Positions 1,852 through 41,500 of a DNA stretch of 64,000 bases are shown here, piece after piece. A model generated the notes under the pieces. That model searched no databases. It worked only from the letters and a program-made list of their open reading frames with translations, and was not told the DNA's origin. Positions within the stretch are counted from its first letter, which is position 1, and every line of letters starts with the position of its first letter. The translations under genes and the position numbers were made by a program. The stretch is from a virus, in IMG/VR virus record IMGVR_UViG_3300045988_140636. One strand, 5' to 3'.

Positions 1852-2235
1852 ATGGATCCAAGTTTAATTACAGGAATTGTAACTTTGTGTACTAACCTAG
1901 CTACAGGTATAGTAACCTGGTTACTAGCCAGAAGAAAATATAATACGGAAGTAGACTCTAATGAGATAGAAAACTTAAAGAAATCTCTAGAGTTTTATGA
2001 GGATATAGTAAGAGATAATAATAGAAAGCTTCAATTCTATATTAAACTTGCTGAAGATAATAGAGTAGGAGTATATAGATTGAAGGGTATTATTCATAGA
2101 TTATTAAACAATTCCTGCTTGGATAATATTTGTACTAAAAGACAATTCTATACTGAGGATCAAATTAGGGATATATTAGGGGAGATAGCTCCTGACTTAG
2201 AGGAAAAGAATATTAAAGATGGAACTGAGTCTTAG
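1852..2235 (+). CDS. holin-like small membrane protein (single N-terminal TM helix plus charged C-terminus)
   Basis: N-terminal hydrophobic segment ITGIVTLCTNLATGIVTWLLA then RRKYN and a highly charged tail; immediately upstream of a putative cell-wall enzyme. Confidence 0.35.
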   Translation: MDPSLITGIVTLCTNLATGIVTWLLARRKYNTEVDSNEIENLKKSLEFYEDIVRDNNRKLQFYIKLAEDNRVGVYRLKGIIHRLLNNSCLDNICTKRQFYTEDQIRDILGEIAPDLEEKNIKDGTES

Positions 2236-2680
2236 AAGAAAATATCTTGGAGATACTTATACAATAGGAGACTTATACATAGATGGAAAGTTCTTTTCTA
2301 ATACTCTTGAAGATGTAGATAGAGGCTTAGATAGCTCAATGACCATAGAGGAAATTAAGGGTAAGAAGATATATGGAAATACGGCTATTCCTAAAGGAGT
2401 TTATGAGATTACTTTAGATATAATAAGTTCTAAATTTAAGAATAGATCATGGGCTAAATTCTGTAATGGAAAACTACCTAGATTGCTTAATGTAAAAGGT
2501 TATGAAGGAGTTCTTATTCATGTAGGAAACAATAGTAGTGATACTCTTGGATGTATTCTGGTTGGAGAGAATACTAGTAAGGGAGTTATTACTAATAGTA
2601 CTATTACATTTAAGAAGCTTTATTCATATCTTCTAGTAGCTAAGGAAAAAGGAGATAAGTTAACTATTAAAATAGAGTGA
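2219..2680 (+). CDS. putative peptidoglycan-acting enzyme with L,D-transpeptidase (YkuD)-like catalytic signature; endolysin candidate
   Basis: Motif IHVGNNSSDTLGCILVGEN resembles the YkuD H...(S/T)xGC(I/V)R catalytic His/Cys signature; overlaps holin-like gene in operon fashion. Confidence 0.4.
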   Translation: MELSLRRKYLGDTYTIGDLYIDGKFFSNTLEDVDRGLDSSMTIEEIKGKKIYGNTAIPKGVYEITLDIISSKFKNRSWAKFCNGKLPRLLNVKGYEGVLIHVGNNSSDTLGCILVGENTSKGVITNSTITFKKLYSYLLVAKEKGDKLTIKIE

Positions 2681-2711
2681 TCAATATGAAAAGAAGTGGA
2701 TGTAAAGGAAA

Positions 2712-2742
2712 AGGTAAAGGTAAAAAAGGTAAAGGTAAATAA
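2712..2742 (+). repeat. short tandem aaaggt(aaa) repeat encoding a KGKGKGKKGKGK peptide within a 15-codon micro-ORF (2696-2743)
   Basis: Direct hexanucleotide-like repetition aaaggtaaaggtaaaaaaggtaaaggtaaa. Confidence 0.4.
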
Positions 2743-3013
2743 TTATGGGAAGACCTAGAGCACTAAATGGCACAACTGGAGCTTCTTCTCTTAGAAGAAG
2801 AAGAGAGTTGAAGAGAAAAAAGAAGAAATAAGATTTGCCATGAGAAGAATAGTTATCTATAAATTGGAATTAATCTGTATAAAGTATATTCCAATAATTG
2901 TAGCTCTTCTTAGTTTATAGGATTCAGTATTCCTCTTACCGATAAGAAGTTAGTATTTGATACAACAGATTTAGAGAGTTTCAAAGAGATGTTAATTACT
3001 AAAGAATAATATT

Positions 3014-3646
3014 ATGGATGAACTTATGTTGATGGAATATCTCAGAAGTAAAGGTATAAGTGAACAAGAATTCATGCATAAATTCAAGGAATTTATGTCT
3101 GGACATACTAGAAATAATCATTCTAGTAACGATGACTATCATTTGATGTATGGAAGTGCTTATGACTCCAACAGACATCATGATATATCAAGTTCATTTA
3201 ACCCAGAGAGAAGTAGAGGAGGTCTCTTTGAAAGATTTAACAGAATGTCCGATAGCTTGACTGAAGAAGATATGTATGAAATAATGAAAATGGCTAGGGA
3301 GAAGAAAAACTCTGGAAATGAACATTTTAATGAATCATATGCAAAATATCTGGTATCTAACATGTACCATTATGAAGGTGGTAGAAAATATGTTGGTGAA
3401 AAATTCAGTATGGCTAAGGCTGAAGAAGTGTGTGAAAGATATAGAGGAGTTATCCCACAATCTTTTACTCATGCAGATACGTATGTAGCTATTAATGAGC
3501 ATTATCATAACTGTAGTGAATTATTCAAGTCATGGTTTGGAGAAGATATAGACCAGAAAGTCATTGAAGCAGCTATATTATACTGGTTCAAAGATGATGA
3601 TTGTAAGAGTAATTCAAAATTGTGGAATCATTTCAAGGAAAACTAA
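3014..3646 (+). CDS. hypothetical protein (210 aa)
   Basis: ORF followed by a clear intrinsic terminator. Confidence 0.4.
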   Translation: MDELMLMEYLRSKGISEQEFMHKFKEFMSGHTRNNHSSNDDYHLMYGSAYDSNRHHDISSSFNPERSRGGLFERFNRMSDSLTEEDMYEIMKMAREKKNSGNEHFNESYAKYLVSNMYHYEGGRKYVGEKFSMAKAEEVCERYRGVIPQSFTHADTYVAINEHYHNCSELFKSWFGEDIDQKVIEAAILYWFKDDDCKSNSKLWNHFKEN

Positions 3647-3651
3647 TTATA

Positions 3652-3685
3652 AAGGGCAGGTTATCTTGCCCTTTATTTTTTTTTA
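3652..3685 (+). terminator. rho-independent terminator (GC stem aagggcag...ctgccctt followed by T-run)
   Basis: Inverted repeat then ttatttttttttt directly after stop of 3014-3646. Confidence 0.6.
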
Positions 3686-3740
3686 CTTATCCTAAGTGTA
3701 AATAATTTACTTATATTATTAATATAACTCCTCTTTAATA

Positions 3741-3772
3741 CTTGTTGCGAATTTGGTTTATATATATCTTTG
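3741..3772 (+). promoter_or_regulatory. Bacteroidetes-type promoter candidate: CTTGTTGC - 16 nt - TATCTTTG, 31 nt upstream of ATG 3804
   Basis: TAnnTTTG -7 box (tatctttg 3765-3772) plus upstream TTG-rich box; identical architecture and spacing recurs at 12523-12554. Confidence 0.45.
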
Positions 3773-3803
3773 CATTGTTTATTAATAAATAGGAGAAACA
3801 AAT

Positions 3804-4976
3804 ATGACTGAAGAGCTTAGTTTAGACAATATTCTGGGATCAGATGAAATAGAAAATCTATTCTCAGAGGAAGAAGAAACACAGGAGGTTCCCCAAGATA
3901 ACGATGGGGACAATCCTGAAGAAAATAAAAATGATAAAGATAATGAAACTACTGAGGTTATTGATGTAGATAATTTATTTACTGATTCACCAGAGAGCGT
4001 AGGTAGTGGAAAAGAGGATAACACAGGGGATAGGGAAGATACTTCTCCTAAAGAGGATAAGGATGCTTCTCCCAATAAACACTTCTACTCTTCCGTTGCC
4101 AAAGCCTTGAAAGAAGAAGGTATCTTCCAAACCCTTGAAGATAATGAAGTTGAAGGAATATCTTCAGCTGAAGACTTTGCTGAGATTATAGATAAGCAAA
4201 TTCACTCTATGTTAGATGACAGACAGAAGAGAATAGATGAGGCTCTAAATGCTGGAGTGGATATTTCAGAAATTCAGAAATATGAGAAAGCTCTAGAGTT
4301 CTTTAACTCTCTTCAAGAGAGTGAAATTACTGATGAGAGTGATAAAGGGGAAAGATTAAGAAAACGGCTTATTTATACTGATTTTATAAATAGAGGGTAT
4401 AGTGCTGAAAGAGCTCAAAGAGAAGTGCAAAAATCATTTAGCTCTGGCACTGATATAGAGGATGCTAAAGAGGCTCTGACAAGTAATAAAGAATTCTTCC
4501 AAACAGAATATGATAATATTATAAAGGAAGCAAAGGAAGAAGAACAAAAGGAAGTGGAAAAGAGAAAAAAACAGGCAGAAGATTTAAAAAGATCAATTCT
4601 TGAAGATACTAAAATATTTGGAGACTTACAAGTAGACAAGGTAACTAGAAGAAAGATTTATGATAATATAAGTAAGCCTGTTTATAAAGACCCGGAGACT
4701 GGAGAATTATTCACAGCTATTCAGAGATATGAAATGGAGAATAGAACTGAATTTCTTAAGAATATTGGGTTGCTTTTTACACTAACTGATGGCTTTAAAA
4801 ATTTGGATAATTTAGTAAAGAATAAAGTGAGAAAAGAAGTAAAGAAAGGTCTTAGAGAGCTAGAACACACTCTCAACAACACATCAAGAACATCAGACGG
4901 AAATTTAAAATTTGTAAGTGGGGTTGAAGATGATCCAGAGTCCTTTATTGGAAAAGGATGGGAAATAGATGTGTAG
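3804..4976 (+). CDS. highly acidic protein (390 aa), scaffold-like by composition and position directly upstream of capsid-sized gene
   Basis: D/E-rich N-terminal third, predicted helical charged remainder; promoter upstream; immediately precedes intron-containing structural gene. Confidence 0.35.
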   Translation: MTEELSLDNILGSDEIENLFSEEEETQEVPQDNDGDNPEENKNDKDNETTEVIDVDNLFTDSPESVGSGKEDNTGDREDTSPKEDKDASPNKHFYSSVAKALKEEGIFQTLEDNEVEGISSAEDFAEIIDKQIHSMLDDRQKRIDEALNAGVDISEIQKYEKALEFFNSLQESEITDESDKGERLRKRLIYTDFINRGYSAERAQREVQKSFSSGTDIEDAKEALTSNKEFFQTEYDNIIKEAKEEEQKEVEKRKKQAEDLKRSILEDTKIFGDLQVDKVTRRKIYDNISKPVYKDPETGELFTAIQRYEMENRTEFLKNIGLLFTLTDGFKNLDNLVKNKVRKEVKKGLRELEHTLNNTSRTSDGNLKFVSGVEDDPESFIGKGWEIDV

Positions 4977-4984
4977 TCTAAGTC

Positions 4985-5364
4985 TTTCATAATTTTATGA
5001 AACATATCTAACTATTAAAAAACAACAGAAATGGCAGGAAAATTAGGAAAATTCCAGATGGTAGGTTTCCAACATTGGAAGGGTTGACTCACAAGTTAAG
5101 CCCTTGTAAAATTGGGTAAAATCGGTGAAGCCCTCCAAATAAAATTAAAGGGTAATACCGAGCTAACCTTTATAATAATATATAAAGGTAGTGTAACGCA
5201 TAGAAGATGAAACTATGATTAGAAAAGCATGTATTTATAATCACATAGAATATAATTCTTCCACGAGTATCCAACATACTGAATAGTATGAAAATGTATG
5301 CTGAACTTACACAATGGTAAAGTGTAAGAACTAAGAGATAAAAAGCTCTCAGGATAACAGATTG
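4985..5364 (+). ncRNA. candidate minimal (endonuclease-free) group I intron upstream of structural-gene exon; 5' boundary unresolved
   Basis: 5' part (5141-5215) is collinear with the 5' part of the GIY-YIG intron (shared ggtaataccgagctaac ... tagtgta ... gaaact); 3' end gataacagattg| matches the TAACAnnnTG| 3' ends of the other introns; putative P7 shows compensatory change (R-like acgcata / S-like tatgc). Confidence 0.35.
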
Positions 5365-6214
5365 TTAACAAAAGAGAACCACTTGGGTTCTATCTTCCAA
5401 TTAGCTCCACAAAAAGCTACCAACCTTATGGTTCAATTGCTTGCCTATTACAGAGGTAAAACCCTTGACACATTCCTAAATCAGTTCCCAGTTAGAGAAT
5501 TTGAAGATGATACTGAGTATTACTGGGATGTAATAGGTTCTTCAAGGAGAAATATTCCTCTTGTAGAGGCAAGAGATGAGAATGGCACTCCTGTTACTGC
5601 AGGAAGCCCTAATGTTGGTGTTGGTACTACTCCTTTTTATTTAGTCTTCCCTGAAGACTGGTTTGCTGATGGAGAAGTAATTGTTGGTCATTTGAACCAA
5701 GTATATCCATTCAGAATACTAGGTGACCCCAGAATGGAGGGAACTAATGCGGTGTACAAAGTTGAGCTGATGGGAGGTAATACTGCAGGATGCCCTGCAG
5801 AGAGACTCCTTGCAGGGGAAAGATTCTCTGTAGATTTCGCTCCAGTAGAGAAGGAATTATCAAGGAAAGTAGGTGATGTTAGATTCACTAGTCCTGTTTC
5901 CATGAGAAATGAGTGGTCTACAATAAGAATTCAACATAAGGTTCCAGGTTCTGCTCTTACAAAGAAACTTGCTGTGGGCATACCTATGACTAAAGCAACT
6001 GAGAACGGAGGACTTACCAAGTCTATAGCTACAATGTGGATGCATAATGTAGATTGGGAAGTTGAACAACAATTCTCTGAATACAAAAACAATGCTCTTG
6101 CGTTTGGTACTTCTAACAGAAATTCCAATGGGGAGTATATGAATATCGGTAAATCAGGCAATGCGATTAAGACAGGTGCTGGTTTAAAGGCTCAAATAGG
6201 CCAGCTAGCTGCAT
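5365..6214 (+). CDS. capsid-sized structural protein (major capsid protein candidate), exon A; ORF-track start 5362 is a TTG at the intron 3' end, not a real start
   Basis: Long ORF ending with T of TAA at 6214 where a group I intron begins (t|aagcag); spliced product ~500 aa with its own terminator; true N-terminus unresolved (possibly internal ATG ~5428 or an upstream exon). Confidence 0.5.
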
Positions 6215-7099
6215 AAGCAGTCAAGAAATTAAAATTAACAAAACTAAGTCGGTGGAAGTCCTGAGATGGATAATACCGAGCTAACTATAGGAACTAAAAA
6301 GCTTATAGTAGTGTAGAGACTAGAGGTTGAAACTCTTTATATTATGACTAAATATGGTAGAATCTATATAATAAGAAATACTATAAATAATAAGGTTTAT
6401 ATAGGACAGACTAAAGTAAGCTTAAAATTGAGATTTCAAAATCATTTATCTGCTGCAAGAAATAACAAAGATTATGTTATAGGTAAAGCGATAAGAAAAT
6501 ATGGTGAAGAAAACTTTTATATAGAATTACTTGAAGAGTGTACTATAGAAGAACTTAATGATAGAGAAAAGTATTGGATTTCTTATTTTAATTCTACTGA
6601 TAATAAATTTGGTTATAATATGTCTATTGGGGGTAATGTTATTAGAACCACTAAAGAATTAGACAAGGACTTAATAATAAACATGTTTAATTCTGGGATT
6701 CCAGCATATAAAATAGCTAAAATTTTGCATACTGGAGTACCTAATATTACTAGTCTATTAAAGAGATCTAATATAATTTATGGCTTAGGTTTGCAAAAGA
6801 CTAATAAACTTGAGGAGTCTATGATAATAGATTTATATTTAGATGGTTATAGTACAGTAGACATAGGAAAAAAGTTTGGTAAAAATAAGAGTACGATAAG
6901 AAGAATACTCTTGAGGAATGATATTAAACTTAGAGCCTTTAAAGAGACTAAAAACTTGGGAAGAGATCTCCCAACATTACAATAGTAATGCTCCACGAGA
7001 GTTTTGCATTTAGATGTGGTAATCTAAATGAATATATAGTCCGAACTTCATAGTAATATGAAGAAATAGTGGATAAAGAGCCACTATGATAACATAATG
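6215..7099 (+). ncRNA. group I intron containing GIY-YIG homing endonuclease gene
   Basis: 5' part with ataccgagctaac and R-like gtgtagagactagagg (6305-6320); S element aatatatagtccgaac at 7025-7040; P9-like hairpins ttcatagtaatatgaa and atagtggataaagagccactat; ends gataacataatg| at 7099. Confidence 0.7.
6344..6985 (+). CDS. GIY-YIG homing endonuclease (I-TevI-like) with C-terminal DNA-binding region, intron-encoded
   Basis: YGRIYIIRNTINNKVYIGQT ... R ... E ... N motifs of GIY-YIG; located between intron core elements. Confidence 0.8.
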   Translation: MTKYGRIYIIRNTINNKVYIGQTKVSLKLRFQNHLSAARNNKDYVIGKAIRKYGEENFYIELLEECTIEELNDREKYWISYFNSTDNKFGYNMSIGGNVIRTTKELDKDLIINMFNSGIPAYKIAKILHTGVPNITSLLKRSNIIYGLGLQKTNKLEESMIIDLYLDGYSTVDIGKKFGKNKSTIRRILLRNDIKLRAFKETKNLGRDLPTLQ

Positions 7100-7600
7100 T
7101 ATTTGAGCAAATGGAAGTAGCTAATACTATGTATTATAATACTTTCAGCTTGAAACTTCTTGAAGATGCCTTGTATGAATTATCTGCATCCAAGTTGGAT
7201 TTTGGTGATAGATATTTCTTAATCAAAACAGGTGAAAGAGGAGCTATCCAATTCCATAAAGCTGTATTGAATGTAGTTTCAGGTTGGACCCAATTTGTAT
7301 TGGATAACAGTTCTACTAGAGTAGTAGAGAAAACCCAGTCTAGATTACATACAAATGCATTGTCTGCAGGATTCCAATTTGTCGAGTACAAAGCTCCCAA
7401 TGGAGTCAGAGTTAAAATTGATGTAGATCCTATGTATGATGATCCAGTTAGAAATAAGATACTTCATCCTCTTGGAGGAGTGGCTTATTCCTACAGATAT
7501 GATATTATGTATATCGGAACAATGGATCAGCCGAATATCTTTAAGTGTAAGATTAAAGGTGATACAGAATATAGAGGGTATCAATGGGGGTTAACGGCGT
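7100..7600 (+). CDS. capsid-sized structural protein, exon B (joins exon A in frame: ...GQLAA-L-FEQMEVANTMYY...)
   Basis: 3' splice after g7099; one nt from exon A (t6214) plus ta 7100-7101 gives Leu codon; exon ends at T7600 of TAA where next intron starts (t|aagcc). Confidence 0.55.
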
Positions 7601-8433
7601 AAGCCTTTACACATTTCTCAGCTCCCAAAGTTCTCCCCTAGAAACAGAAGTAGAGCTAGTAAAGAAAAACAAGGTTAATTGCTGGAAGTTCCTTAGAGCT
7701 TTCACTGCTTTTTAAACTTCAAACATTTAAATATGGAAGTTAAAGAATTATGGAAGCCTCTGCTAGAATATAAAGGCATAGAGGTAAGCTCAATTGGTAG
7801 AATAAGAAAAGCTGCTAATAAGAGTAGAAAAGAGAGAATCTTGACTGAATTTCCTAAAGATAGAGATGGTTACTACAGATGCTCTGTGCAAAGACTTGAT
7901 GGAACATGGACTTCTCAACCAGTCCATAGATTAGTTGCCAAAGCATTTATCCCTAGAACTAAGAATAGAGATATAGTTAATCATATAGATGGGAATAGAA
8001 CTAATAACAGAATAGAAAATCTTGAATGGGTAACTCCAAAAGAAAATGTCATTCATTCATTTAAATTTGGTTCAAGAAAAATTTGTAAACAAGTTCCCAA
8101 GAAGACTATTCTAACAGATTTCCAAGTTAATCAGATAGGGAAATTAAGAGAATTATATACAGTCAATCAAATAGCTAAACTTTTTAATATAGAATATCAG
8201 TCTCTCAAAAATATAATTCATAAAAAGAAACAATGTGAAAGATTGGATGATCAGCAGCCAAGCATATATACTAGTGTATATGAAGGTTCAGAGACTATCC
8301 CAGATGGGAGTAAGTAGTAAGTACTACTGAAACGCCTTGCTCACTTAATATTAAGTGATGAAGATATAGTCCGAACTCTAATGAAAGTTAGAGATAATAC
8401 ATGGAAACGATGTATTAGCAACATAAAAAAAAT
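7601..8433 (+). ncRNA. group I intron containing HNH homing endonuclease gene
   Basis: P-like ggttaattgctggaag at ~7674-7689; S element gaagatatagtccgaac at 8346-8365; hairpins tctaatgaaagttaga and aatacatggaaacgatgtatt; ends aacataaaaaaaatg| at 8433. Confidence 0.7.
7733..8317 (+). CDS. HNH homing endonuclease (NUMOD4-HNH_3-HTH architecture), intron-encoded
   Basis: [10 protein letters not shown]...[26 protein letters not shown] core; N-terminal SIGRIR NUMOD4-like; C-terminal helix-turn-helix-like repeats. Confidence 0.8.
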
Positions 8434-8582
8434 GTGAGAAATCCTTTTACAGGACAGAAGGGTAATCCCTATATGTCTTTTGATGAGGACTCGGCAGTTA
8501 TTCATAGAATGGCCACTTTAGGTATCTGTGTTCTTGATCCTACGAGAACTATGTCAATTATTCCTGCTATACTGCAGGGTTA
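8434..8582 (+). CDS. capsid-sized structural protein, exon C (49 codons, ...DPTRTMSIIPAILQG*)
   Basis: Frame restored by t7600 + tg 8434-8435 (Leu); open to TAA 8580-8582; strong terminator immediately downstream. Confidence 0.5.
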
Positions 8583-8588
8583 ATATAA

Positions 8589-8619
8589 TGGGAGTAGGTA
8601 CTCCTACTCCCTATTTTTT
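8589..8619 (+). terminator. rho-independent terminator (gggagtagg tact cctactccc + T-run)
   Basis: Perfect 9-bp GC-rich stem then tattttttt; 6 nt after inferred exon C stop. Confidence 0.7.
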
Positions 8620-8634
8620 TAGAAAGGAGAAGAT

Positions 8635-9675
8635 ATGGCAAAAAATAAAGTAGAAGAAAATATAAATTACGAGACACCTGAATTTGAAATAGATGAAGAT
8701 TCTATCAGAGAAGTCTCTATGAGAGAGGTTTCAAAGTTGCATCACAATCTTGAAGGAGAGAGCAATGCTTCTGAAGTGTTGGAGAAATCTAACACTGTAA
8801 AGAATAATGCTCTAATTAATTGTTTGAGAAAAGAGAGAGTTATAGTAAGACATATACCAAAAGAAGGAGGAATGATCACAAACCCCAAACATGTGTTATA
8901 TGGAGGAATGGCTGAAAGTGCTAGCAGAACATTCGTAGTTCCTAGATTATCTTCTGGTATGTTTGTAAATGTTCTTACAGATGCTGAGAAAGCTTTTCTA
9001 GAGGAAATTATGGGGCTTGAATATAACTCATTAAGTATCTACAAGAAAGTCGATAATTTCTGGGATGACTCTAACGAAAATGGAATTTCAAAGGTAACAT
9101 TGAAGAAGCAAGATAATTATTTTGATTTATCTAACCCGGAGGATTATATAAGATATAAGATACTACTAGCCAATAAAGATTTTATCGCTTCTTCATTACA
9201 GGAATTACAGGACCATCCAAAAGCTACCTATCAGTTTGTTATTGTAACAGAAGGTGATGAGATTAAATCTGCTAGAGGAAATATGAGTAATACTATGAGA
9301 TGCTATAAGGAATTCGGTAAGGTAGAAAATGATATAGATACATTAAGAGTAATAATAGAATCTATAGACGGAAGACCTACATCTCCCACTGCTAAACTGG
9401 AATTTTTGCAAACGAAAATTAATAGTCTTATTCAAGCAGACAGCAAACTCTTTTTAAGAGTGATTACTGATCCCCTGCTTAGTACTAAGGTTCTTATAAA
9501 GAAAAGTATTGAAGCAGGCCTCATTTCAAGTAGAGGAAACTATTTATACTTGAAGAGTGATAATACTCCCCTATGTGAGATTAATGAGGAACCTACTCTG
9601 AATATAGCTGCTAGATTCCTTAATTCTCCTAAGCATCAGGAATTGAAATTTTCTTTAGAAGCAAAGTTAAAATAG
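8635..9675 (+). CDS. virion/structural-module protein (346 aa), function unknown
   Basis: ORF with aggagaagat Shine-Dalgarno-like spacing before ATG; part of + strand structural operon. Confidence 0.45.
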   Translation: MAKNKVEENINYETPEFEIDEDSIREVSMREVSKLHHNLEGESNASEVLEKSNTVKNNALINCLRKERVIVRHIPKEGGMITNPKHVLYGGMAESASRTFVVPRLSSGMFVNVLTDAEKAFLEEIMGLEYNSLSIYKKVDNFWDDSNENGISKVTLKKQDNYFDLSNPEDYIRYKILLANKDFIASSLQELQDHPKATYQFVIVTEGDEIKSARGNMSNTMRCYKEFGKVENDIDTLRVIIESIDGRPTSPTAKLEFLQTKINSLIQADSKLFLRVITDPLLSTKVLIKKSIEAGLISSRGNYLYLKSDNTPLCEINEEPTLNIAARFLNSPKHQELKFSLEAKLK

Positions 9676-9676
9676 T

Positions 9677-10345
9677 ATGAATAATAAAGAATTCTCTAAT
9701 GAGTTTGACATACTTTATAATAATCTAATGAGTAATAATGCAGCTCCATTGAATGAGTATGAGAAGAGTGTCTTACTTACTCAATCCCAAGAATCTATAG
9801 TGATAGATATATATAATGGGAGATTCAATGGGGAATCCTTTGAAAATACTGAAGAAGTTACAGAATATATAAGTAACTTAGTTAAAGAAGTTACTTTAAG
9901 TGATAAGATAGAGAATGAGGCTCATAAGAATTCTATATTCTTTCAACTACCGGAAGATCTATGGTTTATAACTTATGAATCTGTTAACTTAAGTGATGAA
10001 TCTCTAGGATGTGCAAACAATAAAGATGTAATCGTAGTTCCAGTATCTCAAGACAACTTTTATAATGTATCGAGGAACCCATTTAGGGGTCCCAATGATA
10101 GAAGGGTTTTGAGATTAACTATTGGAACTAAAGCAGAATTAGTTAGTAAATACAATATAAAATCCTACACTGTCAGGTATCTTTCTAGACCAGATCCTAT
10201 CATCTTAGAGGATCTGACAGGCTATGGGGTAAGTATAAATAATGAAACAAAAGTAACAGAGTGTAAACTAAATCCTGTAATCCATAGGGCTATACTTAAT
10301 AGAGCAGTTTCTCTTGCTAAGGCTATATGGTCATCAGGTGCATAA
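9677..10345 (+). CDS. structural-module protein (222 aa), function unknown
   Basis: ORF tightly packed (1-nt gap) after previous gene. Confidence 0.4.
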   Translation: MNNKEFSNEFDILYNNLMSNNAAPLNEYEKSVLLTQSQESIVIDIYNGRFNGESFENTEEVTEYISNLVKEVTLSDKIENEAHKNSIFFQLPEDLWFITYESVNLSDESLGCANNKDVIVVPVSQDNFYNVSRNPFRGPNDRRVLRLTIGTKAELVSKYNIKSYTVRYLSRPDPIILEDLTGYGVSINNETKVTECKLNPVIHRAILNRAVSLAKAIWSSGA

Positions 10346-10379: not shown

Positions 10380-11651
10380 ATGGCGACATTTAGTACAAAT
10401 CAAGCAAGACAACTTTATGTAGCAGAAGCATTAAAACCCTCTAATGTTATTTCAACTGACGCAGTCGGCTCTATTGCAGTAAAATCTGACACAGCAAAAA
10501 ATCACCTGTATTTTGAATACATGGGAGCTGGAGGTATGCTAAGAAGTGACCTAATAGATATTAAAAATATCATGTATGCTAAAGCAACAGATGCTGATGA
10601 TCTGGCTCATGAATTAGCTAAATACAAGGTAACTTTAGATCCTACTGTGAATGGCGGATCTCCGGTGGCTGGTCAGGATTATATCCTTAGAATTGCCTTT
10701 AGAAACTATATTGGTATGTCTGAGGAAGATCAATACTTTAAATATGGCATAGTCCATGCAGTGTCAGGAATGACAGCAGGCAGTTTTTATCAAGAGCTTT
10801 ACAAGTCACTGAAAAAGAACTTCTCAAGAGAAACAGAACAGTTGTTGGACTTTAGCTTGGAAGGAACTGCAGCTAAAGTTACTATGACTACTAATACTGG
10901 TATTACAGTAACTGCAGTAGAAAATGGGGTAATAGGGAACTCTATTAAATTTGCTGTAGAATCTATTACTGCTACAAATGCAGGTTTCAGAGTAACACAA
11001 GAAGATGGATTTACCGTTATCAGGGCTTCCTTGACAGCTGCTAAGAAAACTATCAAAGATTTGAAGGATTTGGTTGCTGCTAATCCAGGTATAGCAGCTA
11101 TGATTTCTATAGCTGGTACAGATGGAACAGCAGTACAATTAGAGGCTACTCCTGTAGCTCTTACTGGTGGAGATGCAAGTGGCTTGATAGTAGAAGAGGT
11201 TCCTCAAGAATGGATACTTGGTACATTCCCTCAAGTCCCTGTAAATTTCACTCTTATGCCAGATACTATTGTAGTTAATAGTGATGATAGAATTTGGGGT
11301 TTGGTAGAGAAACAAGCTTCAACTAATAGTATTCCCGATGGACATAAAATTGCAGATCTTGAATACTTCTGTATGGGTGAGAGAGGAGATGTTTATAGAA
11401 TGGTGGGATTCCCTAACGTTATCAGAACCAAGTACTTGGTGAACCCCGATTTGAAATATAATACTATCGACATTCACTATGCCTATGTTGGTTCTAATGA
11501 GGCTGTTCAGAAATCAGAGAAGGATATTACAATCGTAGTTCCTAAGGTTGGAGATAATAATCAGACTAGTAATAAACTTACTAATGACATTATCACAGCT
11601 ATTAATACTGCTACTGGATTAACGATTACAGCACTTGATGTCTCTGAATAG
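10380..11651 (+). CDS. abundant virion protein candidate (423 aa, beta-rich, Thr/Val/Gly-rich; head-decoration/auxiliary capsid or tail protein)
   Basis: ORF followed by strong intrinsic terminator, consistent with high expression; composition typical of Ig-like/beta structural proteins. Confidence 0.4.
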   Translation: MATFSTNQARQLYVAEALKPSNVISTDAVGSIAVKSDTAKNHLYFEYMGAGGMLRSDLIDIKNIMYAKATDADDLAHELAKYKVTLDPTVNGGSPVAGQDYILRIAFRNYIGMSEEDQYFKYGIVHAVSGMTAGSFYQELYKSLKKNFSRETEQLLDFSLEGTAAKVTMTTNTGITVTAVENGVIGNSIKFAVESITATNAGFRVTQEDGFTVIRASLTAAKKTIKDLKDLVAANPGIAAMISIAGTDGTAVQLEATPVALTGGDASGLIVEEVPQEWILGTFPQVPVNFTLMPDTIVVNSDDRIWGLVEKQASTNSIPDGHKIADLEYFCMGERGDVYRMVGFPNVIRTKYLVNPDLKYNTIDIHYAYVGSNEAVQKSEKDITIVVPKVGDNNQTSNKLTNDIITAINTATGLTITALDVSE

Positions 11652-34774: not shown

Positions 34775-37630
34775 TTAACTTAATAAATTTATTGTACCAC
34801 AAATACTGTCACCATTTTCATCTCTATAATCTACATTAGGCTGAATAGACGTTACATCATTTTCTGAACCTGAGGGAATTTCAAGGGAAGAGCCATATAT
34901 ATCTTCATAAGCCTGTCTTAATGCATCCTCACTAAAGGCCTCTCTGTACATTTCAGAATAAGCCAAATCCTCTTCTGTCATTTGAGGAGTTTCATAAGAA
35001 GTAACTGCTTCATCAATAACAGCATTAGGATTATAACCTTTCTTGTTCTTATCAATTACAGAAGTCATTTCACTTGCTTCCTTACCATACTCATATTCAA
35101 TAAAGCTATTCTTGAATCCAAGTGGCTCAATCCTTCTATAGACGGCTACATTAGACTCTTCAACTCTATCTGCAGTTAATCTGTAATAAATATAGTTACC
35201 TTTGTTTCTTCTTGCAATGAAATCAAAGAAGTCATATACAGGACCATCAGGAGTATCTATTCTCTTCTTGATGATTTTTTTATCCCCAAAATTAGCATTT
35301 TCATCTATTACAAATGTAACTTCATCCTTAATCCCATTATCTTCACCTCTAAATAAAGTTGAAGCATCATCAGGAATTTCAGGAACAAGCTTTCTATTAT
35401 CAAGATGATTGTAGACATACTGTTCAACAAAGTCACTATAGTCATCCTCGGATGTAAGGAGACTTCTTAGTGTTTCAATATACTCTGGAACTGCACTTCT
35501 TACAGCTACAGGAGCTAAATGAATAAAGGTATTAGGACCAAATGCAAAGCCATTTCTGTAGAAGCTGTATCTGAATAAGTTAAGAGCAAGCTTTTGAGCT
35601 TCTGGGTTACTCATATATAATAGAGAAGTCCAGTCTCTCATATATCTTTCTCTTAGAGTGGGACTCAATTGACCAACATTCTTAAACACCACAGTGTCCA
35701 CAGGATTTGTATCATTTGCCCTTATCACTCTAAGTCTCTTAATAAACTCAAGGTCAGCTATATCCTCATTCTCTGCAACCACTTTCTTGAAGTAAGTTGG
35801 GAAATTATTGATGAAGTCCCTTCTCTTGTCAGCAGATGTAATCATCTTTGTAGGATTACCATTCTCATCTACTGAACTCCAATCAGGTTCTGCACCAAAG
35901 AAATCTGTCTTAGACATTATATAAGCAAGCAAATCATTGTAAATACTATTCATAGTCTTCACATTTAATCTACCTGTCTTTGTCATGTTTCTAAGAACAT
36001 CAACTACCTCATCAAATGACTCAGTGAATTGAGGGAAATACTTGCTTAACATTCTCTCTGATTGCTTCAATCCAAGTGTGTAGAATGCCTGTAAGAAAGG
36101 CAATTTACTTGCAAGCAATTGCTCTCTTATGTTGTCAATGTCATCATTAAGAGAAATACTGTCACTGATTACATCTGCCCCTACAAGTGGAAACTTGTCA
36201 TTCTCCTCCATATCTTTCAAGAAGTCTTGAACCTTTTGGATTTTGAGCTTTGTATCAGCAATAGTTGGACCTGCTGCACCACCTTGAGTATCAGACCTTG
36301 TAGCTTGCACAAGCTGACCAAGGCTATCAGCAGTTCTCATTATTCTCTTAAATAGGAATCCTACAGCAACTTGTTTCTTATAGAACTCAACCTTACTGTA
36401 ATCAGAAGTCTGATGGGCACTTGTGATGCCTGCCATTTCCTTTGCAATAAGGATGTTGTTGGCAAGGTCTTCAATTAGGAAGTCATTATTCTTATAGTTA
36501 TCATAAGTAACTTCTTCCATCATTGCAGCCTTCTTCTTATATTCTACAAGGATTTCATCAATCACAGTGTCCTTACCTTTACCTTCTCTACTCTCCCTAA
36601 AATAAGTCTGGGTAATATCCATAACAATAGGTTGTGTCATAAGCAAACCTATCTCAATAGGGTTATAACCTAGTCTTGAAAGAAGCATAGAAGCATCAGC
36701 AGTGAATGTATTTTGGTTAATACCAGCCAACACAGGATCTTTCACATTATCCACAGATGCAGCCAAGAAACCTGCATTATTCTTTGATATAAACTCTTTG
36801 TCTTCATTCATAATGTTATGTAAAGAAATAAGTCTCTTCCCATTCAATATAAATGAGCCATTCTCTACATCAAGGCCTAATTCAGTATGTTGCATTAAAG
36901 CATGATTAGCATTATGATTTGCATATATACCTATCAGTTTTGCACCAGTCATATTCTGTTGATGAAGTTGTACTTGAGTTCTTGGAGAAATAGGGTCAAG
37001 TCTTTTCTTAGTTTTTTCAGTAAGCCTATCAAGTTCTTTTAAATCCATTGAAAGTAACTTAGTAATAATCGAGCCATCAGAAATATTTAAGTCTCTTTTT
37101 AAATCTGATTCATAGCTCGAACTAAGAATACTAATAATTCTTGCAGCTTTCTTTTGATAATCAAAACCACCTGGGTTAAGAATCTTAGAGGCTGTATCTG
37201 TATTCGTTAGAACTCCCCACATCATATCTATCATCAAGTTGTTTCTTGCTTCAAGACTATTTTCTTGTGGAGTTTTATTAAAGTCATACTTTACTTTTCT
37301 AATCTTGTATGTATCAAGTCTGTACTTTTCCTTGTTTTCTTCAAACCATTTCTTAAACTCTACAGGTGCATTTGCAAAGTCCTCTAATAGATTTCCTGCC
37401 CTAAATAAGGTAGCTAATTCATCAAGTATTTCTTGCTCACCTTTAAAGTCCTGTTTTGCTCTTCTGAAGTCAAACTTATCTACCTTGAATTCAGGAAGCA
37501 TAATATACATCTTATCCACATCAAAGTCAGAACCTGACAGAGTGGTAATCTCAGCAGGAAGCATAATTGCAGAACCATTCTGTTGAGGTAAGAATCCTTT
37601 GATATACAAAGGAGCCATTGAGTACTTATC
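34775..37630 (-). CDS. virion-packaged RNA polymerase candidate (crAss-type, DFDVD motif), exon 2; precise 3' splice site within ~37625-37640 unresolved; ORF-track start 37696 is a GTG inside the intron
   Basis: Frame open from intron 3' region; SGSDFDVDKMY motif resembles DxDxD catalytic motif of crAss-like virion RNAP; S element and P9 hairpins lie at 37640-37716 so true exon starts downstream of annotated M. Confidence 0.5.
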   Translation of the reverse strand, partial: DKYSMAPLYIKGFLPQQNGSAIMLPAEITTLSGSDFDVDKMYIMLPEFKVDKFDFRRAKQDFKGEQEILDELATLFRAGNLLEDFANAPVEFKKWFEENKEKYRLDTYKIRKVKYDFNKTPQENSLEARNNLMIDMMWGVLTNTDTASKILNPGGFDYQKKAARIISILSSSYESDLKRDLNISDGSIITKLLSMDLKELDRLTEKTKKRLDPISPRTQVQLHQQNMTGAKLIGIYANHNANHALMQHTELGLDVENGSFILNGKRLISLHNIMNEDKEFISKNNAGFLAASVDNVKDPVLAGINQNTFTADASMLLSRLGYNPIEIGLLMTQPIVMDITQTYFRESREGKGKDTVIDEILVEYKKKAAMMEEVTYDNYKNNDFLIEDLANNILIAKEMAGITSAHQTSDYSKVEFYKKQVAVGFLFKRIMRTADSLGQLVQATRSDTQGGAAGPTIADTKLKIQKVQDFLKDMEENDKFPLVGADVISDSISLNDDIDNIREQLLASKLPFLQAFYTLGLKQSERMLSKYFPQFTESFDEVVDVLRNMTKTGRLNVKTMNSIYNDLLAYIMSKTDFFGAEPDWSSVDENGNPTKMITSADKRRDFINNFPTYFKKVVAENEDIADLEFIKRLRVIRANDTNPVDTVVFKNVGQLSPTLRERYMRDWTSLLYMSNPEAQKLALNLFRYSFYRNGFAFGPNTFIHLAPVAVRSAVPEYIETLRSLLTSEDDYSDFVEQYVYNHLDNRKLVPEIPDDASTLFRGEDNGIKDEVTFVIDENANFGDKKIIKKRIDTPDGPVYDFFDFIARRNKGNYIYYRLTADRVEESNVAVYRRIEPLGFKNSFIEYEYGKEASEMTSVIDKNKKGYNPNAVIDEAVTSYETPQMTEEDLAYSEMYREAFSEDALRQAYEDIYGSSLEIPSGSENDVTSIQPNVDYRDENGDSICGTINLLS

Positions 37631-38540
37631 TTCAGTTGGTTGTTTTGTTATCTTACAGATGTTTATTCTGTAATTCTTTATGTTTCCATAAAGCACGGAC
37701 TATATCTTCATCCTATAAGGATGTTGGGCACTCGTGGGTATATTATATTCTATTTTCATAGTTTCAATACCTAGTCTCTGAACCTTTTATAACCATTTAA
37801 GTTATAACTTGGCTGCTGATTGTCCCTACTTATTGAATTGTCACACACTTGCATATTCCCAGTAATAACCATATCTTTTCTGATGAGTTTTAATACCACT
37901 AATTATGTTAGCATCTTTCCTAATATTTCCTAATTGTCTGGCAGCTTCTCTAATAGATTGGTAAGTATTTATAATATTACCATCATTATCTATTTGATTA
38001 ATCTGTCTTTTATTAGGATTAGATTCTCTAAGTTTTAATCCTATTTTAACTGCTTTATTTCCATAACAGTTATTATAAGACTTAGTACACCATTCAAGAT
38101 TTTCTACAGAATTATTAGTCTTATTTTCATCTTTGTGGTTTATACATTCCAAATTGTTAGGATTTGGAATAAAAGTATCAGCTACTATTCTATGTACTGC
38201 AATAGTTCTTTTCTTGTTAGTGTCATCGTATAATTTCACTATAGGATAGCCACTACTATCAAGTACTGAGGATAAAGGTTTCAAAATGTTACCTTGTCTA
38301 TAACTAAATACTTTACCACTTTTAGTTACTTTATAGCTTGGATATTCTCCAAATCTACTTTTAATATTAAATAGTTCTTCTTCCATATAATGTTTTTGTG
38401 TAGATTTATATGTGCAAAGATACTATAAATATTTGAATTATGCAAATTTTGTATCAATAATCTAACAGGATGTTCCAGCAATTCACCCAATTTATTATTC
38501 TTTAGTATTACTACTAAAGCGAGTCCCAATCTTTCGATTA
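37631..38540 (-). ncRNA. group I intron with HNH homing endonuclease inserted between P and Q elements (boundaries approximate)
   Basis: Minus-strand reading: P gggtgaattgctggaac (38496-38480), Q caatcagcagcc (37822-37811), R ggttcagagactagg (~37785-37771), S gaagatatagtccgtg (37716-37701), P9 hairpin ctttatggaaacataaag; exon 1 ORF stop at 38538-38540. Confidence 0.65.
37841..38386 (-). CDS. HNH homing endonuclease (HNH_3/NUMOD), intron-encoded
   Basis: AVHRIVADTFIPNP...INHKDENKTNNSVENLEWCT HNH signature. Confidence 0.8.
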   Translation of the reverse strand: MEEELFNIKSRFGEYPSYKVTKSGKVFSYRQGNILKPLSSVLDSSGYPIVKLYDDTNKKRTIAVHRIVADTFIPNPNNLECINHKDENKTNNSVENLEWCTKSYNNCYGNKAVKIGLKLRESNPNKRQINQIDNDGNIINTYQSIREAARQLGNIRKDANIISGIKTHQKRYGYYWEYASV

Positions 38541-41500
38541 AACTCTATAACCAATCAACTTCCTAAGATCTTTAGGAAGTTTGGTAATATCAAGTTCATG
38601 AGTTCCTTCCTTCATAAGGGGTTCATAGAACTCTCTTGAATAAGCTGGCATGTAACATTCAAGATATTTAATTCTCTTGTTCTCACCTTCCCCTTCAAAT
38701 ACCACATGAAGTTCATCAGTTAAGCCATAATCAGATACCTGAATCAATGCTCCACCTCTAATCTTCTGTTTGGTGATTTTGCTCTTGATGATACTATTAA
38801 GAAGAGTCTGTACTCTTTGAGATTGTACAGGATCAAATAATGGAATATTGAACTGACCATTCTCATTAAGGGTACAGGCTCTGACCATATCAATTCCATA
38901 TCTCTGATTACCTCTAATCTCTTCAAGTAGTGCCTCCTCTATCTTCTTAGGGTCTTTGAATATATCATTCACATTCTTGAATGCTTGCAAGATATTCTCA
39001 GTATTGATTGCATTATACAGGTCCAGCCATTCCTGCTTGGTCATTTTCTTACCATCAACCTCAATGATAGCATCTGATGCAATATCAGCAGTAATCAACT
39101 TTCTAATCTGAGTACCTACAAGCTGCACAGCATCAATAGCATGTTCAGGAGTTGCAGTCTGAATACCATAATCTTCATAGCTTATTTTATGTACTACATT
39201 AGGATTCTCAATACCATTAGGCATAGTAGTATTCTTCAATACCTCCTTTACTTGCCTGAAGTCACTAACCTCGTTAAGGTCAATAACACCTTGCTTCCCG
39301 ACTTTAGTAGTAGATTCAAATTGAACTACATCAATATTGTTCTCTTCCATGAATTCATTAATAGCTTTAAGCTTGCTTGATTTACTAAGTGGACCAGCTA
39401 TTAACTCATGCATGGCAAGTAATAAGAATTCAGAGTTCTTATGCTGTACAGGAGTCTTAATACCAGTATGACCTTCTACACCACTCATGTTGCTAATTTG
39501 GGTATATACATAAGGTTTCTTAGTCTGCCAGATGATATTAAAGTCAGCAATGTTCCAAGTACCATTTTTGAAATTATTATATGCCTGCTCCATCTCATCT
39601 GTCCATTGGCCAGACATACCAAGTATTGCTCTATAGGAGCTTAAACTTCTATAAGCCTGTGCATCTGCAACATTAACTGCCTTAAACTTGTTAATAATAT
39701 TATCTCTATCCATCTTGGGCATTTCACCTTTCTTAACTCTCTCATCAAGAACTGTTTCAATATCACTCAGTACTGAAGATACAACCTCATCATCCTTCAA
39801 GTAGATAGTTCTTTCCCAATCTCTACCAATTCTTTCTCCCTTATAAGTAGCTTTGGTATTCATTCTAAGAGCTGGGGCATGAACCTCCTTATATCTCTTC
39901 TGAAAGTCCTCTACATTCTTATAGAAAGCTAAGTCGGTAGTAGTTAACTCAATAATTTGAGAAGTAGCTAATTTACTATTCCAGTAATACTCTCTTAATG
40001 CAGCTTTTGTATTATTCTTTACTATAAGGTTTTTGTTAATACTATCTGCTTCTTGTTTAGTAATATCTCCTCTTATAGACTTCTGATTTATTAAGTCTTT
40101 AATTTGTTGGAACAAATCTGTAGCAACTCTATCATCTACTGGATTATTGTTGTTATAATCTTTCAATAACAACTCCATATCAGTAGTCCATAAAGTAGTA
40201 CCAAGGATTTCTTTAGCTTTGATAAGAGACTTTGCAGTTCTTGAGTTCTGCTGTGATTGACCTGCAAAAGGTAAGTACTTATACTTTCCATTTGGTAACT
40301 CATCAAATAAACCAATTCTTGCCCAGTCTCTATATGCCTCTTCAAAGCCATTATCCATAACTTCTCTAAGAGTATCTCTAATGAATTCCTTTAACTCAGC
40401 ACCACTGCCTTCCCTGCTCAATCTACTCAATCTGTCAAGGAATGTTTCTCCATTATTATATCTAATGGAATTAAGTGCAGGTAAGAACTTAAACTCAGCT
40501 CCCCCTATACTCTTAATACTTCCATCCTTCTTCCTGGAAATATCATAGTTTGCTATAGGGGAGATGTTTGGATTATTATTCTGAAATTCCTCATCTCTTG
40601 CTCTGACAAGCATTATTCTGTCATATTCTTGATTGACTAAATCAGTTAGTTTATCAAGGATAATATCATCATAAGTCAGCTTGTTCCCATTCTCATCATA
40701 TTCAACTCCACTTACATATTTTCTGAATCTAATGAATTCAGCAGAAGGAGAATCTGAAAGAATAGGGACATGATACCAGGCCCACTTCACACTTGTTCTA
40801 CTATCTTCTGGGTCTCCCCAATATTCAGTAAGAAGTGCTAAGGTATAATCTAAGTCATCCCAGTTAGTGTAGTCCACTTTATCAGAGTTCAATACTACTT
40901 TATGATTTAGGCCTCTTCTCATTTCCTCAGAGTTAACCAGTTGCTCTAACCAGTCACTTCTCCATCTCCCATCTTTAAAGAACCACTCATATTGCTTAAA
41001 CTCAGTATTAATAAATTCTTCAAATCTCTTCCTATCTCCTCTTACATTCTTAAGCTGTTTAATTAACTTTCCAAGATAATTTGGGGTGACATGAGAGTAA
41101 TAAGACTTATCATTCTCTCTAACACTACTTTCAATAGCATCTTCAGTTACATTAGCCATCATATTTGCAATCGCACTATAAGCTGAACCAAATGTATTGA
41201 TTAAGTCTCCTCTCTTCTCTATTCCATCTTCTCCTGTTTCTGACTTTATTTCCCCCTTCTTGATTCCTTTGAATATAATATTCAATTGAGGTAGTAGGAC
41301 CATAATAGGGTCAGTAAACTTAGCTGTATCAGAAGTTCTAATATCAGTTAGTGCATTTCTTAATATAGAGGGATTGGCATCAATACCAATCATATTCAAC
41401 AGCTTTAGTATAGTTTTCCAGATCCTATCATCCTCAAGAAGTTCTAATCTTGCTTCAGTATCCAAATTAGAGAATTTATTGTTTAGAGTTTCGACCCACT

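Follow-up and report, generated by a model that had tools for sequence, protein, structure and literature searches.

The window analysed here, a 64,000-nucleotide (nt) stretch of viral DNA from IMG/VR record IMGVR_UViG_3300045988_140636, carries between positions 5031 and 8583 the gene for the major capsid protein (MCP) of a crAss-like phage, split into four exons by three group I introns. We consider it very likely that the gene gives one precursor from which the three introns excise, and that the exons are ligated to encode a 504-residue capsid protein of the HK97 type. An earlier note, written from the letters of the window without database searches, had taken the region for a gene of three exons and two introns; the split gene holds, but the count does not. 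The evidence comes from the identity of the gene, the positions of the junctions, the P1, P10 and omega-G elements, the core helices with their covariation, the intron-less alleles of relatives, and purifying selection on the exons. Splicing, endonuclease activity and homing are inferred.

Identity of the gene

Positions 4900–8700 of the window are 99.3% identical, over their full length, to cr128_1 (MT774392, NC_055885; Crassvirales, Steigviridae, Mahlunavirus rarus), a phage whose source is human faeces. The three open reading frames (ORFs) from which the gene was first recognized, 5362–6216, 7111–7602 and 8434–8583, exist and match consecutive parts of the Pfam family PF23898 (Crass_capsid), namely profile positions 18–290 (E = 1.6e-114), 290–450 (E = 1.2e-74) and 450–495 (E = 2.7e-14).

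The spliced product aligns with residues 1–504 of crAss001 gp32 (PDB 7QOF chain A; E = 9e-296), gapless at the corrected junctions described below. The two proteins are both 504 residues long and are 85.5% identical (tblastn). Since it matches the family profile and a solved structure over its full length, the product belongs to the crassvirus MCPs (the earlier note had supposed a major capsid protein), and the gene is, judged by these matches, the MCP gene of a crAss-like phage near-identical to cr128_1. The identity to the solved crAss001 capsid protein argues for an HK97 fold.

Exons and splice junctions

The exons and the downstream terminator are as follows.

5031–5084, + strand, MCP exon 1: 54 nt, 18 codons, MAGKLGKFQMVGFQHWKG; placed by tblastn with gp32 residues 1–21, junction search and gapless alignment
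5365–6184, + strand, MCP exon 2: placed by PF23898 18–290 and junctions
7100–7591, + strand, MCP exon 3: placed by PF23898 290–450 and junctions
8435–8583, + strand, MCP exon 4: 48 codons, TAA stop at 8581–8583; placed by PF23898 450–495 and junctions
8590–8620, + strand, intrinsic-terminator-like hairpin (8590–8611; 9 bp, 6 of them G-C) and T-run, directly after the MCP stop

Exon 1 opens with the ATG at 5031 and agrees with the N-terminal end of crAss001 gp32 at 17 of 18 residues. When 5084 is joined to 5365, the protein reads on as ...HWKG/LTKENHLG... without a gap. Since the PF23898 match begins only at profile position 18 and the join restores the N-terminus, the intron upstream of exon 2 (5085–5364) is real, and what had been put forward as a further candidate intron upstream of 5365 is borne out.

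To place the junctions, all placements near each site were scored; the best gap-free placements form short ambiguous runs. In each run, only one placement leaves the exon ending in U and the intron ending in G, and this placement was chosen (5084/5365, 6184/7100 and 7591/8435). Such a single placement is found in 11 of 11 MCP introns, the three of the window and eight in three related phages. The corrected exons encode 504 residues, with no gaps against six homologues (crAss001, cr85_1, MT839637, spliced bajarodcaudo virus 1, cr116_1 and cr111_1). The predicted spliced junction sequences are TGGAAGGGT joined to TTAACAAAAG, GGTGCTGGTT joined to TATTTGAGCA, and CAATGGGGGT joined to TGAGAAATCC; the predicted peptides across junctions 2 and 3 are AIKTGAGLFEQMEVANTMYYNTFSLK and GYQWGLR.

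The earlier note had all the 3′ splice sites right (5364/5365, 7099/7100 and 8434/8435, each after G), but it had put the 5′ splice sites on the T of two TAA triplets. The true 5′ splice sites, 6184/6185 and 7591/7592, are 30 and 9 nt upstream of those placements. TAA 6214–6216 is intron RNA, in the P2 hairpin loop of intron 2, and TAA 7600–7602 is intron RNA as well, past the 5′ splice site of intron 3 and ahead of its guide sequence. The motif TAACAnnnTG described for the 3′ splice sites is present in introns 1 and 2, whereas intron 3 ends with AACATAAAAAAAATG. The terminator described after the spliced product is present. The product has 504 residues rather than the 517 that the TAA joins give.

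The GenBank record of cr128_1 (MT774392, NC_055885) has no intron or join feature, and exon 1 (window 5031–5084) is unannotated there. It lists three separate 'major capsid protein' coding sequences, and a 'hypothetical protein / homing endonuclease' and an 'HNH endonuclease' stand in between. The first of the three begins at an internal ATG (window about 5428), and the third begins inside intron 3 (window about 8381), 54 nt before the true 3′ splice site.

Interactions of the guide sequences with the exons

By their conserved elements, the introns sort into two types, class X (intron 3) and class Y (introns 1 and 2). Their elements are as follows.

5085–5364, + strand, intron 1 (site A, after codon 18): 280 nt, ORF-less, class Y
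5095–5105, + strand, intron 1 guide: P10 GTTAA, P1 GCCCTT
5112–5118/5268–5274, 5122–5127/5156–5161 and 5167–5188, + strand, intron 1 P3, P4 and P6
5196–5202/5297–5302, 5203–5207/5257–5261 and 5275–5290, + strand, intron 1 P7, P7.1 and P8
5307–5352 and 5364, + strand, intron 1 P9 arms and omega-G
6185–7099, + strand, intron 2 (site D, codon 292): 915 nt, class Y
6193–6205, + strand, intron 2 guide: P10 CAAATA, P1 GGCCAGC
6207–6221, 6239–6245/7000–7006 and 6249–6254/6274–6279, + strand, intron 2 P2 (contains TAA 6214–6216), P3 and P4
6285–6308, 6311–6322, 6323–6327/6989–6993 and 7007–7030, + strand, intron 2 P6, R/P7, P7.1 and P8
7032–7046, 7046–7063, 7066–7087 and 7099, + strand, intron 2 S/P7′, P9, P9.1 and omega-G
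7592–8434, + strand, intron 3 (site F, codon 456): 843 nt, class X
7614–7627, + strand, intron 3 guide: P10 TTTCTCA, P1 GCTCCCA
7629–7657, 7670–7674/8335–8339, 7677–7687, 8249–8262 and 8263–8282, + strand, intron 3 P2, P3, P element, Q and P6
8285–8297, 8298–8309, 8314–8327 and 8341–8358, + strand, intron 3 R/P7, P7.1, P7.2 and P8
8360–8376, 8376–8393, 8397–8415 and 8434, + strand, intron 3 S/P7′, P9, P9.1 and omega-G

In each intron, the guide sequence sits 10–30 nt within the 5′ end, with its P10 strand directly 5′ of its P1 strand. The guide is complementary to the end of the preceding exon, giving P1 (intron 1, AAGGGU/GCCCUU with U5084·G5100; intron 2, GCUGGUU/GGCCAGC with U6184·G6199; intron 3, UGGGGGU/GCUCCCA with U7591·G7621), and to the start of the following exon, giving P10 (UUAAC/GUUAA, UAUUUG/CAAAUA and UGAGAAA/UUUCUCA, respectively). 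The omega-G is G5364, G7099 and G8434, and it is found in 11 of 11 MCP introns in four phages. Unaided minimum-free-energy folding of intron 1 with its exon flanks gives P1, P4, P5, P6, P8 and both P9 hairpins (z = -3.85); this intron has no P2.

The exon and guide strands change together. In bajarodcaudo virus 1 and two IMG/VR contigs, the silent exon change GCT to GCA at site D goes with a guide change of GGCCAGC to GGCCTGC; a third IMG/VR contig has exon GCAGGTT with guide GGTCTGC. At site F, silent GGG to GGA (TGGGGGT to TGGGGAT) goes with GCTCCCA to GTTCCCA. P10 covaries at site A (exon TTAAC to TTGAC, that is TTA to TTG; guide GTTAA to GTCAG) and at site D (exon TATTTG to TATTCG; guide CAAATA to CGAGTA). 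Silent exon changes tracked by guide changes are hard to explain without selection on the pairing and, with it, on splicing.

Ribozyme cores

Class Y introns are marked by a P element AAAUCGGUGRAG, a Q element UAAUACCGAGCUAAC, an R element AGUGUAGAGACUAG and an S element AURUAGUCCGAAC, and their P7.1 is one compound arm. In class X, the P element is AAUUGCUGGAA, the Q element AAUCAGCAGCCAAG, the R element GGUUCAGAGACUA and the S element GAAGAUAUAGUCC; P7 and P3′ are separated by two small hairpins (P7.1 and P7.2). The S-like elements of introns 2 and 3 are located 58–74 nt before the 3′ splice sites (7032–7046 and 8360–8376), each followed by two hairpins, much as first described.

A scan of IMG/VR for the class Y Q element (TAATACCGAGCTAAC) gives 99 stretches with 104 matches, 78 with flanking P and/or R; the contigs (loci L009–L107) are 4–184 kb long. 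We aligned 29 distinct cores with plain MAFFT (alignment A1), from which endonuclease ORFs were excised from the P7.1 loop where present. Trimming to helices of fixed length was dropped because the lengths of J4/5 and J8/7 vary. Over these 29 sequences, 93.3% of the cells of the core (P3, P4, P5, P6, P7, P7.1 and P8, with the P3/P7 pseudoknot) are paired, compared with 31–43% in slid controls in which the 3′ partners are moved by 1–3 columns. Both sides change in 28 of the 41 pairs, and 0 of 500 shuffles attain the covariation score. Because the structure was drawn by eye from these very sequences, it has some advantage over the slid controls; the count of double changes is unaffected. P7 is 100% paired with three covarying pairs (GACUA/UAGUC, GCAUA/UAUGC, GAGUA/UACUC, GCGUA/UACGC and GAUUA/UAAUC), and P3 is 97.5% paired with six of its seven pairs covarying.

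The core of intron 3 can be compared with introns that the Rfam group I model RF00028 recognizes. The model detects class X where an ORF is lacking: the ORF-less site-F introns of bajarodcaudo virus 1 (locus L003) and cr116_1 (locus L004) score 77 and 72.9 bits, respectively, against RF00028, both above its gathering score of 50 bits. Over its first 115 nt, intron 3 shares 88% identity with the bajarodcaudo intron, and over its last 190 nt 79%; about 530 nt with the HNH gene stand in for the P5 loop. The predicted core of intron 3 is supported through this homology to RF00028-positive introns. A group I core from P3 to P8 with the P3/P7 pseudoknot is thus found in all three introns, by covariation in introns 1 and 2 and by homology in intron 3. 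Together with P1, P10, omega-G and the intron-less alleles in relatives, it bears out the assignment to group I that the earlier note had made.

RF00028 assigns a different P1 to the L003 site-F intron (GCGGCG/CUCGCC). This helix is not conserved in the window, and the exon–guide pairing is preferred.

Homing endonuclease genes

Two of the introns contain endonuclease genes, and the third contains a short ORF.

6344–6985, + strand, GIY-YIG homing endonuclease gene: 213 residues; PF01541 and HTH_23; PHROG homing endonuclease families, E = 4e-29
7733–8317, + strand, HNH/NUMOD4 homing endonuclease gene: 194 residues; Pfam HNH_3 and NUMOD4; PHROG HNH endonuclease, E = 4.6e-39
5215–5248, + strand, ORF stub MIRKACIYNHI*: 11 codons, in the P7.1 loop of intron 1; read from the sequence

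The Pfam and PHROG matches agree with the first reading of a GIY-YIG gene in one intron and an HNH gene in the other. Each ORF combines a catalytic domain with DNA-binding modules and is located inside an intron, and both products are predicted to be homing endonucleases. The GIY-YIG ORF is entirely within the P7.1 loop of intron 2 (stem 6323–6327/6989–6993), in a frame that differs from that of the exons. From its start in the P5 arm of intron 3, the HNH ORF crosses Q, P6, R/P7 and P7.1 and reaches its stop codon in P7.2.

At the position of the intron 1 stub, two IMG/VR relatives (L058 and L066) have about 300 nt extra, starting with ATGAATGGATTTATTTATAT and containing a GIY-YIG-like ORF (MNGFIYI...). 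The stub is probably what remains of a deleted GIY-YIG gene, with the ribozyme kept.

Intron-less alleles and selection on the exons

The MCP gene is uninterrupted in at least 35 Steigviridae records of the phage collection, including crAss001, 25 PhiCrAssBcn isolates, cr85_1, cr106_1, cr112_1, IAS virus and DAC15. It is split in four phages, the window phage/cr128_1, bajarodcaudo virus 1, cr116_1 and cr111_1, with seven distinct insertion sites among them. The introns are at codons 18, 292 and 456 in the window phage and cr128_1, at codons 61 and 456 in cr116_1, and at codon 148 in cr111_1. In bajarodcaudo virus 1 (PQ006092, L003; rodent gut), the gene occupies 2003–6883 and has five introns and six exons, with introns at codons 18, 121, 292, about 340 and 456. 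At site F, the intron carries the HNH gene in the window and lacks it in two relatives. In the relatives, endonuclease genes have come and gone while the insertion sites stayed fixed.

Between the spliced MCPs of the window and bajarodcaudo virus 1, the ratio of nonsynonymous to synonymous substitution rates (dN/dS) is 0.04, with synonymous sites near saturation, which points to strong purifying selection on the interrupted gene. The window's pair of class Y elements, spaced 1118 nt apart, recurs in at least five IMG/VR contigs. The same arrangement in independent contigs excludes an assembly artefact.

Proposed splicing pathway

In the pathway that we propose, the MCP gene would be transcribed as a single precursor, from about 5031 to the terminator at 8590–8611. 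Each intron would excise itself, with the last exon U paired to the guide G in P1 and the guide bases 5′ thereof paired to the start of the next exon in P10. Joining of 5031–5084, 5365–6184, 7100–7591 and 8435–8583 would then yield the 504-residue capsid protein. By analogy with other phage introns, both endonucleases would cut intron-less alleles in co-infecting relatives and thereby spread the intron, and intron 1 would have lost its endonuclease gene. A scan for sigma-70 promoters, with a model that does not cover Bacteroidota promoters, does no better than chance, with 20 sites compared with 16.8 expected in shuffled sequence, and was set aside.

Weighing of the evidence and alternative explanations

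Several observations weigh against this pathway. The covariance-model search proposed as a check in the earlier note gives no match to RF00028 in 4900–8700, even at E ≤ 10, and none of the three MCP introns reaches the gathering score of the model (50 bits). The P5 register varies among class Y members (P4–P5 helix 89.7% paired). The HNH ORF covers about 70 nt of the ribozyme core, with possible interference with folding. Intron 1 could be splicing-impaired in a way unseen in sequence. Splicing itself is deduced from the sequence.

The first of these points has an explanation. At the gathering score, RF00028 finds 0 of 11 ORF-less class Y cores from IMG/VR. The model misses introns 2 and 3 because of the endonuclease insert, and it misses intron 1 because the ribozyme type is outside its reach. 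The miss reflects what the model can detect and does not speak against the fold. Weak matches to small RNA and small nucleolar RNA families in the Rfam output for 4900–8700 were taken as chance.

Class Y-like sequence also adjoins homing endonuclease genes in Staphylococcus 6ec-like, Clostridioides phiCD211-like and Bacillus phages, with 68–72% identity over 63–80% of the query. These matches in Firmicutes phages indicate that the class Y ribozyme type is widespread, though unannotated there. Class Y, which is abundant in phages of both Bacteroidota and Firmicutes, may even be a structural group I subgroup outside the current general models, a suggestion that we make tentatively and regard as unlikely. 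If it were true, many 'fragmented' phage genes would go unrecognized as spliced, and the crAss001-like capsid gene would then rank as an intron hot-spot that offers at least seven insertion sites and takes up to five introns.

Among the alternatives to the proposed pathway, the one that survives best keeps the introns as real but supposes that one or more of them, introns 1 and 3 being the candidates, depends on a protein or splices at low efficiency and throttles capsid output. The passage of the HNH ORF through Q, P6, P7 and P7.1 speaks for it, as does the lack of P2 in intron 1; according to a review, ORFs that reach into the intron core call for tightly controlled ORF expression (PMC3984707). 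However, the core helices of introns 1 and 3 are all intact and conserved, and poor splicing would be costly for the MCP, the most abundant protein of the virion. We consider this explanation quite improbable.

Alternatively, the gene could be broken and unspliced, either a pseudogene in a defective phage or a set of fragments translated separately as a split capsid protein. The listing of the pieces as separate coding sequences in GenBank would fit. However, neither exon 1 with its 18 codons nor exon 4 with its 48 could plausibly be expressed on its own, an ATG is missing at the 5′ ends of exons 2 and 4, and the architecture recurs in several independent assemblies. In addition, dN/dS is 0.04 over the joined exons, and silent exon changes matched by guide changes are sensible only under selection for pairing and splicing. 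This selection and the exon–guide covariation make a dead or unspliced gene very unlikely.

Still less probable is a 517-residue product of the same introns, cut on the T of the two TAA triplets (6214/6215 and 7600/7601). As the earlier note had observed, the ORFs do join in frame there, free of stops, and U precedes both cuts. But none of the six homologues has the LKAQIGQLAA and LTA that these joins bring in, the exon bases claimed at TAA 6214 contain the guide (6193–6205) and the P2 hairpin (6207–6221) of intron 2, and the covarying P1 pairs set the cuts at 6184 and 7591. The 517-residue join was rejected on alignment to PDB 7QOF.

Bridging of the interruptions by inteins, by stop-codon readthrough or recoding, or by ribosomal bypass can practically be dismissed: suppressor tRNAs and inteins do occur in some crAss-like phages (PMC7886860), but the endonuclease ORFs are out of the exon frame with many stop codons between, no Hint or intein domain is among the Pfam matches, and the inter-exon stretches of 280–915 nt have no capsid homology and show the full group I anatomy. 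Group II introns are excluded, since RF00028 was the sole match when the entire window was scanned with Rfam, and the insert ORFs include no reverse transcriptase. Excision of three group I introns thus remains our preferred explanation of the MCP gene.

Other introns and neighbouring genes in the window

The window has further group I introns, both on the − strand. One, at 59650–60579, splits a uracil-DNA glycosylase gene, with exons at about 60765–60580 and 59649–59158 that join as ...FLGQD/PYPQKGVATG.... It scores 80.9 bits against RF00028 at 59686–59932, contains a LAGLIDADG_2 ORF (59791–60516) and ends with GGTAACAAATTG. The other, at about 37640–38537, is located between ORFs 38538–42890 (1450 residues) and 34775–37696 (973 residues), neither of which has a Pfam match. 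It scores 54.4 bits at 37676–37919 and contains an HNH_3/I-HmuI-like ORF (37841–38386). The two flanking ORFs are probably one giant gene split in two.

Upstream of the MCP gene, the acidic gene at 3804–4976 that had been called 'scaffold-like' is syntenic with crAss001 gp31 but has no PHROGs or Pfam match, and beyond this synteny nothing supports the label. Further upstream, at about 2631–3008 (+ strand), a free-standing homing-endonuclease-like gene precedes the capsid module, apparently in no intron; it was placed by correspondence with the cr128_1 coding sequence QOR59720.1 ('endonuclease; Group I intron endonuclease [phiCrAss001]'). Downstream, on the + strand, are genes for a tail ring protein (9677–10345; Pfam CrAss_Ring_3_4) and an auxiliary capsid protein (10380–11651; Pfam crAss_AuxCP), confirming the order of the crAss001-like structural module.

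Comparison with known systems

The public record holds three MCP fragments without the first exon, and the correct gene product is a single 504-residue protein with defined junctions. The correction matters for capsid-based phylogeny, taxonomy and proteomics of crAss-like phages. Endonuclease-free introns and one of the ribozyme types escape domain searches and RF00028, so the intron loads of gut phages are probably under-counted.

The td, nrdB and sunY introns of phage T4 (subgroup IA2, with GIY-YIG or HNH-type endonucleases) are a known parallel to class X, which resembles td. P/Q/R/S elements, P7.1 plus P7.2 hairpins between P7 and P3′, an endonuclease ORF in a peripheral loop and a AACAUAAUG-like 3′ end make up a layout found in td, in intron 3 and in the two further introns of the window that RF00028 detects. 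Unlike in T4, the host gene is structural instead of belonging to nucleotide metabolism, and the HNH ORF in the P5 arm overlaps the core. The orf142 gene of the Staphylococcus phage Twort reportedly contains three group I introns whose splicing was shown by Landthaler and Shub in 1999. Like the window MCP gene, it would be a single phage gene with three such introns; the lineage and the host differ, and splicing in the window is a prediction.

The closest relative in architecture is the MCP gene of bajarodcaudo virus 1, which also has introns at sites A, D and F (79–88% identical), with the same 213-residue GIY-YIG gene at site D. It differs by two extra introns (codons 121 and about 340) and by an endonuclease-free site-F intron of 351 nt, compared with 843 nt in the window.

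Yutin et al. 2021 (Nat Commun, PMC7886860) described group I introns in core genes, the MCP gene included, of crAss-like phages from the Delta and Zeta groups; one Zeta-group genome has five MCP fragments. The introns were recognized there via endonuclease domains, and the alpha–gamma group was said to lack such insertions; a 2023 review repeats these statements (PMC10136315). The phage order, the MCP gene and the kind of element are common to those cases and ours. In contrast, the window phage belongs to Steigviridae near crAss001, its ribozymes and exact junctions are defined, and its intron 1 is ORF-less and so invisible to a protein-domain search. We found no paper on the introns of cr128_1 or Mahlunavirus in the literature.

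In the Bacteroides-infecting gut 'Jug' jumbo phages, many essential genes are split by group I introns with HNH, GIY-YIG and LAGLIDADG endonucleases, and 37 of 76 predicted introns were confirmed as spliced by metatranscriptome reads (Sci Adv 2026, PMC12880540). These phages form another clade, and the genes highlighted are terL, nrdD and DNA polymerase, whereas splicing in the window phage is predicted from sequence.

Compared with these systems, the MCP introns of the window are an example of a known phenomenon, real and cleanly resolved. New are the exact arrangement of four exons, a first intron without an ORF, two corrected splice sites and the extension of intron-split capsid genes to the crAss001-like family, as well as the finding that one of the two ribozyme types escapes RF00028. 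The case adds to existing knowledge and does not change it.

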